64,000 nucleotides of DNA, from contig JAXGQW010000015.1 of assembly GCA_040766265.1 (NCBI GenBank), forward strand, positions 14,711-78,710, read 5' to 3'. This document shows positions 12,945 to 61,826 of the stretch, one piece after another; within the stretch, counting starts at the first letter, position 1, and every line of letters starts with the position of its first letter. This DNA is from Verrucomicrobiota bacterium (GTDB taxonomy: Bacteria; Verrucomicrobiota; Verrucomicrobiia; Limisphaerales; J093). The position numbers and the translations under genes are program-made. Below the pieces are notes generated by a model that saw nothing but the letters and a program-made list of their open reading frames with translations, did not search any database and was not told where the DNA came from.

Positions 12945-13019
12945 GCTAACCCGCATATTTCACACCCCGTCGGTACACATGGCGGTCAGACTTCGCGAGA
13001 GGACTGCTATGCGGGTTAG
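12945..13019 (+). repeat. palindromic unit A (75 bp, GCTAACCCGCATA...TATGCGGGTTAG)
   Basis: Near-identical to 61585..61659 and similar to 45615..45687. Has a 12-bp perfect terminal stem. Confidence 0.8.
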
Positions 13020-25053: not shown

Positions 25054-25067
25054 GATCGGTTTGCTTT

Positions 25068-25143
25068 GCCAGCACGCACGAGCGCACCTCTCGATGACAT
25101 CAGCTCCGCGTTCTTCAGGAGTTGGCGAGAAATGCGCGCGCGA
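25068..25143 (+). repeat. degenerate palindromic unit E
   Basis: ...CGAGCGCACCTCTCGATGACATCAGCTCCGCGTTCTTCAGGAGTTGGCGAGAAATGCGCGCG aligns with 55211..55286 and 34988..35062. The terminal stem is eroded. Confidence 0.6.
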
Positions 25144-33571: not shown

Positions 33572-34783
33572 TTACTCCTTGCCGCGTTTGGCTTCGCCCT
33601 CTTTGGCAGCCTGGCCCGGCGCGTGTGGGACTTCGGCGGACGCAGCGGCTGCGGTCGCGGTCGCGGCCATTTCGGCGGCCGTGAAGGGCTTGACCTCGGC
33701 GCCTTCGCGAACCTTCTGCAAGCCTTCGACCACGATACGCTCGCCGGCCTTGAGGCCTTCCAGAATCAACAAACTGCCGCCGATCTGTCGGCTCACAGTG
33801 ACCGGGCGCTGCCCGGCCTTGTTGTCCGAACCGATGACCCACACGAAGTTCTTCCCCTGCAACTCAGCCACTGCCCGCTCGGGGACGAGAATCGAATTCT
33901 CACGGACGCCAAGATCCACGCGGATACGACCGAACATGCCCGGGCGCAGGACTTTCCGCAACGTCTCGCCCAGCTTGACGTCCGGATTGGTAAACTCGGC
34001 GCGCACGCGGAACGTGCCGGTCTTGACATCCACCGCGCGATCGATGAACACGAACTTGCCTGTGTCCGGATGCGCCGAGCCGTCGGCCAGGATGAGCGTG
34101 ACTGGCATGTCCTTCAACCGCTTGCCCGTGCGGCGCACCTCGGCTTCCGCTCTGAGATAGTCCACCTCGCTGACGCTGCAGTAAAACCAGATCGGGTCCA
34201 GCACCGAGATCGTGGCCATCAAGGTCGGTTGCCCTTTGCCGACCAACTCACCGATGGACACCTGCTTGGCGCCGATCAGCCCGGCGATTGGTGCGCGGAT
34301 GTCGCAGTAGCTCAGGTCCAGTTCGGCTGAGCTCACGCGGGCCTGGGCGGAGACCAGTGACGCCTTGCCGACGTCGACTGCGGCGAGCGCGTTGTCCAGG
34401 TCCTGCTGCGGCACCGCCTTCTTCTCGGCCAGCGGCTTGAGGCGCGCCACGTCCGCTTCGTTCTTCTTCAAAGCCGCCTCAGCCTCGCCGAGCATGCCCT
34501 TGGCGGCCTTGAGCCGTTCCTGGTAAGGCTTGTCATCGAGCTTGAAGAGGGGATCGCCCTTCTTCACGTCCGTGCCCTCGGTGAAGAGCATCTGATCCAC
34601 AAAACCCTCGACGCGCGCCCGGATTTCGACGTTCTGCGGCGAGTCCAATTGCCCGATGAACTCGGTGCTCAACGGCACGTTCGTGGGGGCGAGATCCATC
34701 ACAACGACCCCGGGCGGCGGCAAGGTTGGGGGCGGCGCTTTCCGACAGCCGCAAACAACCAACGTCGCCGCCGCGATCAGCAA
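33572..34783 (-). CDS. RND efflux periplasmic adaptor (MFP) lipoprotein, start uncertain
   Basis: LLIAAATLVVCGC lipobox, EFIGQLDSPQNVEIRARVEGFV, barrel-sandwich hybrid pattern. There is no ATG or GTG between the lipobox and the repeat array; TTG 34783 is the nearest start. The track ORF runs to 35083 through repeat units C-B-E. Confidence 0.85.
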   Translation of the reverse strand: MLIAAATLVVCGCRKAPPPTLPPPGVVVMDLAPTNVPLSTEFIGQLDSPQNVEIRARVEGFVDQMLFTEGTDVKKGDPLFKLDDKPYQERLKAAKGMLGEAEAALKKNEADVARLKPLAEKKAVPQQDLDNALAAVDVGKASLVSAQARVSSAELDLSYCDIRAPIAGLIGAKQVSIGELVGKGQPTLMATISVLDPIWFYCSVSEVDYLRAEAEVRRTGKRLKDMPVTLILADGSAHPDTGKFVFIDRAVDVKTGTFRVRAEFTNPDVKLGETLRKVLRPGMFGRIRVDLGVRENSILVPERAVAELQGKNFVWVIGSDNKAGQRPVTVSRQIGGSLLILEGLKAGERIVVEGLQKVREGAEVKPFTAAEMAATATAAAASAEVPHAPGQAAKEGEAKRGKE

Positions 34784-34822
34784 AGCGAGTCTCTCGGCGA
34801 CCCGGGTCCGCGGCCCACTCCC

Positions 34823-35062
34823 TAGCCCGGATTTCTCAATACCGCGAAGATGACAAAGAAATCCGGGCTGTGGCAAAACCGGGCCGGGACAGTGGAAAAT
34901 CAGGGTCTGGTCGCGCAGGAGAACGCAGTCGCAAACCGACACCCCGTTGCCTTTGTCCCTCCCTCCAGCCCGGCGCGGTTTTGCTTCGCTAGCGCGCATG
35001 AGCGCACTTTTCGACAACATCAGCTCCGCGTTCTTCAGAAGTTGGTGAGAAATGCGCGCTAG
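34823..35062. repeat. palindromic mosaic C - B(inverted) - E
   Basis: C 34823..34870 (TAGCCCGGATTTCT...AGAAATCCGGGCTG), B 34873..34984, E 34988..35062 (GCTAGCGCGCAT...ATGCGCGCTAG). Confidence 0.8.
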
Positions 35063-35114
35063 GTAGTTCCTCAGGTTCTTCATATCATTGACGTGACCTT
35101 CGGTTTGATGGCCC

Positions 35115-36343: not shown

Positions 36344-36456
36344 GAGGCAGATTCGACTTCAAGGAAGCGCGGCTTTGTCGGTCCGTTCAGATCGCATCCA
36401 TCTTGCGCAGCTTCGCTGACACGTCCACCGCCGACGTTCGAAAAGAAGGGCTGGCC

Positions 36457-36695
36457 AACCCGGATTTCTCGCCACTTGAAGGAGTAATCTGAAATCCGGG
36501 CTGTGGCAAAACCGCGCCCAGAGCGGGGAAAGCAACGATTCCGTGCGTCGGGATCGTGCTCGCCCAGCAGAACATTCTGTGGCTTTTCGTTCTCTCATCG
36601 GTCGGGGCGCGGTTTTGCTCTCTTAGCCTGCATTTGTACTTCTCCTGTGTGCTCCGGCTTCGCGTTGTCCAAAAGTGGTGAGAAATGCAGGCTAA
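36457..36695. repeat. palindromic mosaic C - B(inverted) - E
   Basis: C 36457..36503, B 36506..36618, E 36623..36695 (TTAGCCTGCATTT...AAATGCAGGCTAA, 13-14 bp perfect stem). Ends 5 nt from the porin stop codon. Confidence 0.8.
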
Positions 36696-45614: not shown

Positions 45615-45942
45615 TTAGCCCGCATAGTTCACACCCCGATGGTGCACGGGCACTCAGACTTCGCAAGAGGACTGCTATGCGGGCTAGAGAAGCAAAACCG
45701 CGCCAGGATCGAGAGATCGAGAACTGAAACACACTGTTCCCATGAGAGACCATTCTCAGGACCGACAGAATGCTGCCGGTTCCATTTCTGGGCGCGGTTT
45801 TGCCAGAGCCCGGATGTCAGACTCCGCGAAGCTTTGTGAAACATCCGGGTTAGCGAGGCGTCGGGTGCCGGTCATCGTGGTGGCCCCCCAACGTGGACGA
45901 GTCGTTTACAGGCCTCGCCAGTCTGCGGCGAAGCCTCGCTAA
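45615..45942. repeat. palindromic mosaic A - B - C - D(inverted)
   Basis: A 45615..45687, B 45692..45803, C 45806..45850, D 45850..45942. Adjacent units abut or share terminal nucleotides. Confidence 0.85.
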
Positions 45943-54127: not shown

Positions 54128-55240
54128 ATGCGGTTTCTGATGTTGAATTGGCGGGATCCGAAAAACCCGCTGGCGGGGGGTGCCGAGCGCGTCACTGCCG
54201 GATACCTTTCCGCATTGAAGCAGCGCGGGCACGAGGTGTTCTGGTTTGCCAACCATTTCCCCGGCGCGGCCATCGAGGAAACCGTCGAGGGCATCCCGGT
54301 CGTGCGGGGAGGCGGCAAGGGGAGTTCGGTTCTGGCCGCCCGGCGATGGTATCGGCGGCAGCGTCCGTTTGACCTGGTGATCGACCAGCATCACGGGATT
54401 CCGTGGTACGCGCCGTGGTGGTCGCGCACGCGGTGTGTGGCGTACATTCACGAGGTGCTGGGGCCGATCTGGGACGTGTTCTACAACTGGCCCTGGTCGG
54501 CCATCGGCAAGTGGCAGGAACGTCGGACGCTCTGGCTCTACCGGAATGTGCAATTCTGGACGGCCTCGGCCTCGACAAAGACCATTCTGTCCGAGATCGG
54601 CGTTCGGCACGTTCAGCTCATTCCCTACGGCGTCCATACGACAGCCATCCCGGAACTCGAATCGAAACCGATCGAGCAACCTGTGCGCCTGGTCATGGTG
54701 TCACGGCTCGCACCGAATAAACGGGTCGACCATGGCATTCGGGCTTTGCGATGCCTGGCCGACCGGGGCATCCGAGCGACGCTGAATATCGTGGGGGCGG
54801 GCGACATGGAACCGGCGTTGCGGGCTCTGACCTCGGAGTTGAGCGTGGGCGGGCTAGTGCGTTTTTCAGGGCCGCTGTCCGAAGCGGCGAAGGATGCTGC
54901 GTTGCGAGAGGCTCATTTGCTCTTGCACGCTTCACTGCGCGAGGGGTGGGGGCTGAATATCATCGAAGCCAACGCCATGGGCACACCCGCCGTCGTCTAT
55001 CCTGTCGCCGGGCTGATCGAGGCCACGGTGCAGGATCAGACGGGGCGCGTGGCGGACTCGGAATGCCCGGAGGCACTCGCGGATGCCGTGCAGCGGTGCG
55101 TCGAAGCGCCGGCGGATTATCAACGGTATCGCCGTTGCGCGTGGGAGCGGGCCAAGACCTTTCACTGGAGCCAAGTGCTGCCAAGGGCATGCGATTGGCT
55201 CGAGGCACGGGCTAACGCGCATGAGTGCACCTCTCGATGA
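54128..55240 (+). CDS. glycosyltransferase family 4 (GT-B)
   Basis: MRFLMLNWRDPKNPLAGGAERV... and the EX7E region REGWGLNIIEANAMGTPAVVY. The last 9 codons (ANAHECTSR) and the stop are encoded by repeat unit E. Confidence 0.88.
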   Translation: MRFLMLNWRDPKNPLAGGAERVTAGYLSALKQRGHEVFWFANHFPGAAIEETVEGIPVVRGGGKGSSVLAARRWYRRQRPFDLVIDQHHGIPWYAPWWSRTRCVAYIHEVLGPIWDVFYNWPWSAIGKWQERRTLWLYRNVQFWTASASTKTILSEIGVRHVQLIPYGVHTTAIPELESKPIEQPVRLVMVSRLAPNKRVDHGIRALRCLADRGIRATLNIVGAGDMEPALRALTSELSVGGLVRFSGPLSEAAKDAALREAHLLLHASLREGWGLNIIEANAMGTPAVVYPVAGLIEATVQDQTGRVADSECPEALADAVQRCVEAPADYQRYRRCAWERAKTFHWSQVLPRACDWLEARANAHECTSR

Positions 55241-55355
55241 CATCGGCTCCGCGTTCTTCAGAAGTTGAAGAGAAATGCGCGTTAGCCCGCATTTCTCACC
55301 AACTTTTGACGTCATCTGACCGGTCACCGTCACATTTCACCTGAAATGCGGGCTC
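55211..55355 (+). repeat. palindromic units E (55211..55286) and A-prime (55282..55355), sharing TTAGC
   Basis: E: GCTAACGCGCAT...ATGCGCGTTAGC (12-bp perfect stem). A-prime: TTAGCCCGCATTTC...GAAATGCGGGCT. Confidence 0.8.
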
Positions 55356-55356
55356 A

Positions 55357-56440
<1,084 letters not shown>

Positions 56441-56551
56441 CTACTAGAGCTTTGCACGCGCACGGGCAAGCTTGGTCCCGAAGAGAGAGCGTGCGCCATG
56501 GCCCTACTAGAGCGAATCGCATCGATGCTGGGTGGCTTGGGCTCGCGCTGA
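56441..56551 (+). pseudogene. C-terminal remnant of a four-helix-bundle (23S rRNA IVS / Avd-like) protein gene, apparent 3' exon of the intron
   Basis: LLELCTRTGKLGPEERACAMALLERIASMLGGLGSR* fits the family C-terminus pattern (..LL.l...lgyl..ee...l...leei.kML.GLi.sl) recalled from memory. No upstream exon is present. Confidence 0.45.
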
Positions 56552-56602: not shown

Positions 56603-56733
56603 ATCCTGCAACCACATCGACAAGCATCGAGAATGTCCAAACTCTTGGCGCGGACTCACGTCCGCGGCTACGCAACCACGATTCATGGGCAGCGCTGACA
56701 TTTAAGGGTTCGATGCGCACGGCCATGAACCAG

Positions 56734-56866
56734 AAACGTGCAACGCTCAACGCTCAACGTGCAACGCTCAACGCTCAACGTTCAACGCTCAACGCTCAAC
56801 GCTCAACGCTCAACGCTCAACGTTCAACGTGCAACGCTCAACGCTCAACGTTCAACGTTGAACACT
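56734..56866. repeat. heptanucleotide tandem array, ~19 units of CAACGCT (variants CAACGTT, CAACGTG)
   Basis: Read directly: 17 clean units from 56741 to 56859 plus degenerate flanking units. It ends in the 14-bp perfect palindrome GTTCAACGTTGAAC (56850-56863). Lies 99 nt upstream of the ATG at 56965. Confidence 0.95.
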
Positions 56867-56964
56867 CCTCACTCTCCACTCCATTCTTTGCTCGCGGTTG
56901 ACGGGCGCACGGCAAGTGTGGAATTCTCGGTCGATCGAAGCTCAACTGGAAAGGGGCAAAGACT

Positions 56965-61412: not shown

Positions 61413-61589
61413 ATGCCTGACAAAAGCAACCAAGGGACAAAAAGGACTCCAAGGGACGAAAGCCCGCTTCCGTCCCCCGAGTCCCCTCCGTCTCTTCCCG
61501 AGGGCGCGGGCTTCATCCCGCCCCACGGCGGCTACCAAAACCTGCTGAGAGAGGGCGGCCTGCGCGAGCGCATGACCCGCGCCCGCTAA
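61413..61589 (+). pseudogene. internally deleted four-helix-bundle-suffix-domain gene remnant (58 codons; below the track threshold)
   Basis: My translation: MPDKSNQGTKRTPRDESPLPSPESPPSLPEGAGFIPPHGGYQNLL|REGGLRERMTRAR*. The N-terminal GFIPPHGGY..L and C-terminal EGG.RER..R.R motifs of that family are joined directly, so about 150 central codons are missing. The stop TAA is the TAA of GCTAAC of repeat unit A. Confidence 0.55.
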
Positions 61590-61826
61590 CCCGCATATCT
61601 CACACCCCGTCTGTGCACATGGCAGTCAGACTTCGCAAGAGGACTGCTATGCGGGTTAGAAGAGCAAAACCGCGCCAGGCCTGAACGATGGAGAAATGCA
61701 TCAGACTGTTTCCATCGCAGAACACCTTCAGAACCGACACGAGGCTCTTGGTTTCCTTTCTGGGCGCGGTTTTGCCACAGCCCGGATATGAAACTCCGCG
61801 AAGCCTCATGACATATCCGGGCTAAG
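61585..61826 (+). repeat. palindromic mosaic A - B - C
   Basis: A 61585..61659, B 61664..61775, C 61778..61826 (GCCCGGATAT...ATATCCGGGC). Confidence 0.85.

Follow-up and report, generated by a model that had tools for sequence, protein, structure and literature searches.

Matched arm changes in palindromic units of an uncultured Verrucomicrobiota genome follow subfamilies of MITE-like elements

Why do the two arms of a short palindromic repeat stay complementary while the sequence between them drifts? The question is raised by a 64,000-nt stretch of a Verrucomicrobiota genome (the window, C57:14711-78710; the genome comprises 5.54 Mb in 191 contigs with 64% G+C), for which the original prediction was that compensatory base changes keep the terminal stems of repeat units A, C and E perfect, implying selection for, or templated maintenance of, a DNA or RNA hairpin. 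All of the stem sequences quoted for the three units are found in the window. In the unit E copy at 34989, the opening 11 bases (CTAGCGCGCAT) and the closing 11 (ATGCGCGCTAG) are exact reverse complements of each other and enclose a non-palindromic interior of 52 nt. The window contains the following copies, with unit C at 45806, 61778, 34823 and 36457.

12946..13019, + strand: solo unit A, arms CTAACCCGCATA / TATGCGGGTTAG, one of 210 genomic copies
25067..25140, + strand: decayed unit E copy, CCAGCACGCAC...ATGCGCGCGCG, with several single-arm mismatches
34824..35061, + strand: 238-bp composite mobile block of three hairpins, namely unit C (arms 34824-34835 / 34858-34869), a B-like hairpin (arms 34873-34885 / 34972-34984) and unit E
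34989..35062, + strand: unit E copy of subfamily E1, 74 nt, read in the sequence, one of 74 genomic copies; arms 34989-34999 / 35052-35062 (CTAG+CGCGCAT / ATGCGCG+CTAG)
36445..36682, + strand: second 238-bp composite, read in the sequence, of unit C, a B-like hairpin and then E2'; terminal unit E variant TTAGCCTGCAT...ATGCAGGCTAA at about 36623-36695
45615..45851, + strand: A-B-C composite of the other subfamily with the direct repeat TTAG...TTAG on either side; unit A TTAGCCCGCATA / TATGCGGGCTAG at 45615-45688
55212..55285, + strand: unit E copy, arms CTAACGCGCAT / ATGCGCGTTAG, in which pair 4 is A-T, not G-C
61586..61823, + strand: A-B-C composite with the direct repeat CTAA...CTAA on either side; unit A at 61586-61659, with arms as in the copy at 12946

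The palindromic units are MITE-like mobile elements

A genome-wide nhmmer search gave the following copy numbers: unit A, 210; unit B, 120; unit C, 103; unit E, 74. Units A and E are 74 nt long, unit C 46 nt and unit B 112 nt, and an ordered A-B-C block of about 238 bp is present at about 70-110 loci. The arm type TA-R-C-N-N-G-S-AT occurs 317 times in each orientation, and in 128 of the 173 hairpins built from such arms (11-13 bp) the TA-to-TA length is exactly 72 nt. Units are found in both orientations, and neither they nor the blocks hold an ORF specific to them.

Mobility is seen in eight comparisons of filled and empty sites at six loci in sister genomes, together with two skips in metagenome strains, one of them at a seventh locus. 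The block at 34824-35061 is absent in sister genome G002, where the site reads CCCTCGGTAG between flanks that are 95% identical, and in two metagenome runs the contigs pass directly from 34823 to 35062, with 238 bases missing. The contigs of these runs, X2 and X5, also lack the 238 bases of the neighbouring block at 36445-36682. Beyond 34824-35061, five more loci are empty in one or two sister genomes; the composite at 61586..61823 is absent in G005, with CCAA at the site, and the one at 45615..45851 is absent in G002, with TTTG at the site. None of the empty sites (L002, L011, L012, L013, L014, L016 and L020) has an intact TA (CTCG, CCAA, TTTG, CTGAG, CCAG and CCAC), likely because intact YTAR sites are quickly occupied. 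For solo units, the outer CT and AG already exist at the empty sites. Presence thus differs among close strains, and the 238-bp blocks of three units would move as a single piece. What emerges is a MITE system of uncultured Verrucomicrobiota that is modular and very active and that reshapes intergenic regions.

The family is new and belongs to an ordinary class of element. Like bacterial MITEs that DDE insertion sequences move in trans (Correia/NEMIS, RUP and those with IS5-type YTAR insertion), the units are short, gene-less and high-copy, have terminal inverted repeats resembling those of an autonomous element, are present or absent from strain to strain and are stacked as mosaics. They differ from such MITEs in being very small (74 nt), with a length that is fixed across families with unrelated interiors, in the inverted rather than direct 4-mers that flank solo units, in ends that are only about 80-90% like those of the candidate partner, and in a partner transposase that is poorly characterised, with weak IS1380 and PF01609 similarity.

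The genome contains 1,187 CTAG sites against 18,302 expected. YTAR tetranucleotides are among its five rarest, with CTAG, TTAA, TTAG and CTAA the rarest after TATA, and the MITE system probably drives the 15-fold CTAG depletion. Ends of repeat units make up a large share of the genomic CTAG sites.

The insertion at C115:25164 converts a TGA stop codon to TAA. At C132:39636 and C132:17619 (L088, L094), this genome and sister genome G001 have different elements at the same intergenic sites, with 19-23 interior differences plus indels between flanks that are 92-99% identical, which points to site re-use or turnover. In the window, the longest ORF (503 aa, minus strand, 33572-35083) spans unit E and the entire 238-bp insertion, and the actual start of the gene has to be downstream of the inserted block, near 34750.

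Arm covariation is a property of subfamilies

In alignments of unique sequences, 93.7% of the cells in the closing stem of unit E are paired against 87.6 ± 0.6% after shuffling, and 40 cells have double changes against 11.5 ± 2.5, a number reached in 0 of 500 shuffles. Slid controls score at most 0.054, compared with 0.202 for the true register. The stem of unit A has 32 double-change cells against 13.2 (0 of 500 shuffles), of which one pair gives 28, and the 13-bp stem of unit B has no covariation at any pair. Since the covariation exceeds chance, some constraint on complementarity exists.

Two common Watson-Crick states are found only at A pair 4 (A-T 102, G-C 71), E pair 1 (C-G 63, T-A 6), E pair 6 (G-C 43, C-G 21), E pair 7 (C-G 55, T-A 15), C pair 9 (T-A 84, C-G 13) and C pair 10 (G-C 59, A-T 37). 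Of the copies with the variant base at these six pairs, 71/84, 6/6, 21/22, 15/15, 13/14 and 37/41, respectively, have the complementary base on the other arm. The pair states follow the interior sequence and therefore define subfamilies: on full-sequence trees they need 1-9 changes each, compared with 8-63 when labels are shuffled, with at least nine state switches for A pair 4. The E1-type interior is combined with A-T at pair 4 in the unit E copy at 55212 alone, and the other A-T copy (C24:47012) differs in both stem and interior. The claim that each change on one arm is matched on the other therefore holds genome-wide to the extent that covariation exceeds chance, but it is confined to the six pairs that define subfamilies. 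Nearly all of the signal comes from these pairs, which is largely the outcome that the original prediction had named as its own refutation, a few subfamilies copied whole. The stems are perfect in the quoted copies, but across the genome about 6% of stem cells in the unit E and unit A alignments of unique sequences hold non-standard pairs, 29 of the 173 hairpins have unlike arms (the arm types are identical in 144) and, over all copies of unit A, 4-34% depart from the commonest Watson-Crick pair, depending on the pair. More generally, inverted-repeat arms of mobile elements covary through whole-unit copying, and 'compensatory' changes in genomic palindromes need to be read with this in mind.

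Resident copies decay by unpaired mutations. Within tight clusters, the ratio of single-arm changes to compensated doubles is 60:4 for A, 16:3 for E, 53:2 for C and 20:0 for B, so that single-arm mismatches exceed compensated doubles by more than 10 to 1 (about 15-fold). Scattered doubles were compared with a null built from site-specific change frequencies and a per-copy age, with observed and expected numbers of 25 and 32.4 for A, 6 and 4.7 for E, 1 and 3.9 for C, and 0 and 3.6 for B. A 2.6- to 10-fold excess of scattered doubles, obtained by comparing partner with non-partner columns, was removed by this null. The non-partner control misleads because partner columns have a common hot change, given that identical mutations arising on the respective strands of the two arms are complementary by default, and because old copies inflate doubles; such copies yield chance doubles unless site-specific rates and copy age are modelled.

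Twelve orthologous pairs between this genome and four sisters, from which the two G001 sites at C132:39636 and C132:17619 were left out as replaced elements, contain 6 changes in 192 core-stem positions, 0 of them compensated, compared with 45/600 in interiors and 76/~1,440 in flanks. Continuing templated or selective maintenance in resident copies, as originally proposed, is thus not supported, as the doubles match the site-and-age null and the orthologs have single-arm changes only. The orthologous stems change about half as fast as the interiors (p = 0.029), and private substitutions within clusters amount to 0.0093 per site in stems and 0.0137 in interiors (p = 0.015). Since stems change more slowly than interiors, some post-insertion constraint or correction may act on them. 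Within-cluster singleton counts were used in place of whole-family counts of singleton variant types per column, which saturate in variable interiors and are misleading for B and E.

RNA-level structure would be another reason for arms to match. The units could encode structured RNAs, mRNA 3'-end stabilisers or terminators whose hairpin is selected at the RNA level, an explanation that we consider highly improbable. Copies do occur at gene ends and in intergenic regions that are transcribed, stems are about twofold more conserved than interiors, and the one metatranscriptome that holds the organism, as unstranded contigs, has units from other loci within longer RNA contigs. The inner helix of unit A had been singled out for a G-U-compatible change, and G.T is indeed frequent at one of its pairs (A-T 31, G.T 29 and G-C 5 among 68 unique sequences), but the neighbouring pair is broken in 32 of the 68, which constitute subfamily 2, the second largest. 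Double changes in the inner helices of A number 18 against 6.0, with slid controls nearly as high, and this signal is weak and subfamily-bound. There is no overall G.U bias (89 G.T versus 106 A.C mismatches in core pairs), and no covariation is seen in a plausible helix inside unit E, where the columns do not differ from shuffled ones. RNAalifold predicted zero consensus pairs for 63 unit E sequences, and named structures were therefore counted instead. The units match nothing in Rfam at gathering and E-value thresholds except for one chance miRNA hit. No T-run follows the stems, both orientations occur, and close strains differ in which copies they have. The RNA-level structure that had been suggested is therefore not supported. 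RNA contigs identical to the window span 33600-34759.

Compensatory changes in mobile hairpin repeats are already known, from REPINs, in which they occur across the hairpin (PMC3116915), and from bcr1, a mobile repeat in the Bacillus cereus group that has target duplications as well as compensatory base-pair changes (reviewed in PMC3184786). In contrast to the present units, for which an RNA-type signal was not found, bcr1 is about 155 bp long and transcribed, and its compensation is read at the RNA level.

Junction tetranucleotides and candidate mobilising elements

The A and E examples in the original prediction (TAAC/GTTA versus TAGC/GCTA) concern the base beside TA, which lies inside the YTAR junction. 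The 4-mers flanking A-B-C blocks are direct (CTAA..CTAA, TTAG..TTAG, TTAA..TTAA) in 15 of 20 non-palindromic cases and inverted in 0, and the left and right 4-mers are equal in 29 of 44 composites. YTAR insertion with a 4-bp duplication is known for IS5 (PMC5009759), and the composite blocks show the same arrangement; as direct repeats of an IS5-like duplication, their 4-mers are therefore target-derived. Nevertheless, in 27/30 and 36/44 copies the last of the four bases on the left is complementary to a base inside the element, at a distance of 66 nt. The internal partner sits at the other foot of terminal hairpin A, and one block subfamily holds both states (G-C 14, A-T 6, mismatched 5). Solo units have inverted 4-mers (CTAA..TTAG) in 22 cases versus 2 direct; a plain duplication of 4 bp would not produce these, and only a duplication of TA beside element ends A...T or G...C is compatible with them. 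The direct 4-mers of composites and the inverted ones of solo units could not be attributed to one common duplication length.

Given these junctions, mobilisation may depend on intrastrand pairing that reaches into the target, although we think this unlikely. Targets may be picked by pairing with an internal guide, similar to IS200/IS605 but with an apparent duplication and DDE-like ends, or the hairpin foot may be rewritten by template switching soon after insertion. If either reading is true, the property that is kept would be hairpin pairing and not protein recognition of two like ends. Target-internal base pairing, if real, would extend guide-like target choice beyond HUH transposons.

A broader role for replication template switching, in which quasi-palindrome correction between arms keeps the stems, and above all the junction 4-mers, complementary without selection, is quite doubtful. 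Such correction is well established, both in E. coli and in yeast (PMC7202029), and it would account for the CTAA...TTAG flanks of solo units, for composites in which the left 4-mer differs from the right but pairs internally (CTAA/TTAG/CTAG, 3 copies) and for the frequent matched flips of pair 4 inside one composite subfamily. However, compensated doubles are not above the neutral null at any other pair, the 12 orthologous pairs contain no compensated change, and 4-34% of unit A copies, depending on the stem pair, still have mismatches. The state of pair 4 is also strongly tied to the interior subfamily, which suggests inheritance.

The tetranucleotides also bear on a third explanation, that the units belong with REPINs or IS200/IS605 as single-stranded-DNA elements and are moved by one of the genome's Y1 (HUH) transposase-like proteins, with the flanking 4-mer read by an internal guide and complementarity selected since the substrate is a folded strand. 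We regard this as unlikely. REPINs (REP doublets), which have RAYT transposases, are hairpins of about 70-110 nt in hundreds of copies whose arms are more conserved than the spacer, and the units resemble them in these features, in the 74-nt size with a fixed TA-to-TA length and in having compensatory changes. In IS200/IS605, a flanking tetranucleotide is complementary to an internal one at the foot of a hairpin, as the target-derived fourth base is here. The genome has 14 Y1_Tnp (PF01797) matches, but arms flank 0 of the 11 Y1-gene loci examined, and a RAYT or IS200 association was rejected on this ground; unlike REPINs, the units have apparent target duplications and DDE-like ends and flank no RAYT-type gene that we could find. 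Furthermore, IS200/IS605 makes no target duplication and has subterminal hairpins at the ends of a longer element, whereas the 4-mer here is apparently duplicated on both sides, the outer CT and AG of solo units pre-exist at empty sites, and the ends are like those of a DDE-type element. The hairpin units have no relation to another multicopy element, a Y1_Tnp-like gene of about 1.1 kb in five near-identical copies with a weak match of 26.5-27.1 bits (L054-L058, at C117:48130, C118:25227, C137:99158, C152:20708 and C46:29194), which have a common upstream AT-rich box, AGATAAAGTGACAGGTTCTTAATTATTGACAT.

Judged by its ends, the likely mobilising partner is a 1.84-kb autonomous element of the DDE type at C166:11951-13787 with a 588-aa transposase ORF (C166:11990-13753) and inverted-repeat ends CTAG|CCTGGATTTCCACG. 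These ends are similar, not identical, to those of unit C (CCCGGATTTCTCA) and unit E (CGCGCATTTCTCAC), with about 14 of 16 bases matching unit C, fewer matching A and E, and about 80-90% likeness overall. CTAG|CCTGGATTTCCACGGA stands at both ends of 18 metagenome-contig copies (two exact protein sequences) and of the genome's own copy, whereas the search for autonomous copies ending in CCCGCAT or CGCGCAT gave none. The transposase family has more than 8,000 relatives, mostly on contigs of about 2 kb. Contigs of this size are typical of multicopy elements that are dropped by assemblers and binning. The 588-aa protein scores 27.7 bits against the IS1380 model NF033539, short of the cut-off of 180, and has no significant Pfam match; a few relatives have a precomputed PF01609 hit.

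A paralogue with 48-52% protein identity and a length of about 2.09 kb is present at C109:9795-11384 (L052) and in sister genome G003 (C24, L048). In both genomes its two ends are unlike each other, CCTCGATTCCCA versus CCTGAATTCCCA (CCTCGAT versus CCTGAAT; also read as CCTCGATTCCCATG versus CCTGAATTCCCACG), with CTAG beside both. The composites likewise amplify despite unlike ends, GCAT-type on the left (CCCGCAT...) and GGAT-type on the right (...ATCCGGG). The transposase hence seems tolerant of unlike ends.

Two other known systems were considered and rejected. The genome has at least seven IS630-family genes, but the arm motif is not at the ends of four such loci (L059-L062) and the composite repeats are 4 bp, not the 2 bp of an IS630 / Tc1-mariner parent. 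Integron attC sites have RYYYAAC ... GTTRRRY core sites and an imperfect stem with extrahelical bases, and they lie at cassette boundaries. Only a minority of copies, those with CTAAC...GTTAG, resemble such cores, many being CTAGC...GCTAG, and the stems are perfect and the units abut without cassettes.

Descent, mobilisation and other repeats

Taken together, we consider it probable that the units are gene-less elements of the MITE kind in which the arms match through subfamily descent and complementarity is needed, or restored, at mobilisation. The 'terminal stems' would then consist of the inverted repeats at the two termini, together with the YTAR tetranucleotide where the element joins its target. 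Paired arm differences would have arisen a handful of times, in lineages that later amplified, and each subfamily would carry a matched pair because the differences preceded amplification. After insertion, copies would decay mostly through single-arm mismatches. Complementarity appears to matter at amplification, given that all six amplified variants are compensated though single-arm variants are about 15 times commoner, and we infer that it is required or restored at the mobilisation step. The only amplified mismatches seen in an unsystematic look were an innermost-pair C.T group of at least 4 copies and, in the junction 4-mer, T.G in 26 and G.T in 16 copies. A 74-bp element may need to form a hairpin or cruciform for its ends to meet, and such a step is plausible for elements this short since the transposase seems to accept ends that differ. 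No function of an RNA or of the resident locus appears to depend on the complementarity.

Of the original interpretation, a constraint on complementarity beyond chance stands, but RNA structure and continuing maintenance in resident copies are not supported. Counting against descent with a requirement at mobilisation are the only partly matching ends of the candidate partner, a transposase far below the IS1380 cut-off, stems that change more slowly than interiors, the nine or more switches at A pair 4 and the inverted 4-mers of solo units.

Other repeats are present in the same DNA. Further abundant hairpin families with different arms are represented by CGCCCCGGTG (151 perfect pairs), AGCGAGGCGC (35) and TAGAATCCTT (30). 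In the window, 56331-56444 and 56714-56895 match the group II intron catalytic domain in Rfam (51.8 bits), and some 25 tandem units of a 7-nt repeat, AACGCTC/AACGTGC, follow about 270 nt downstream of this match.
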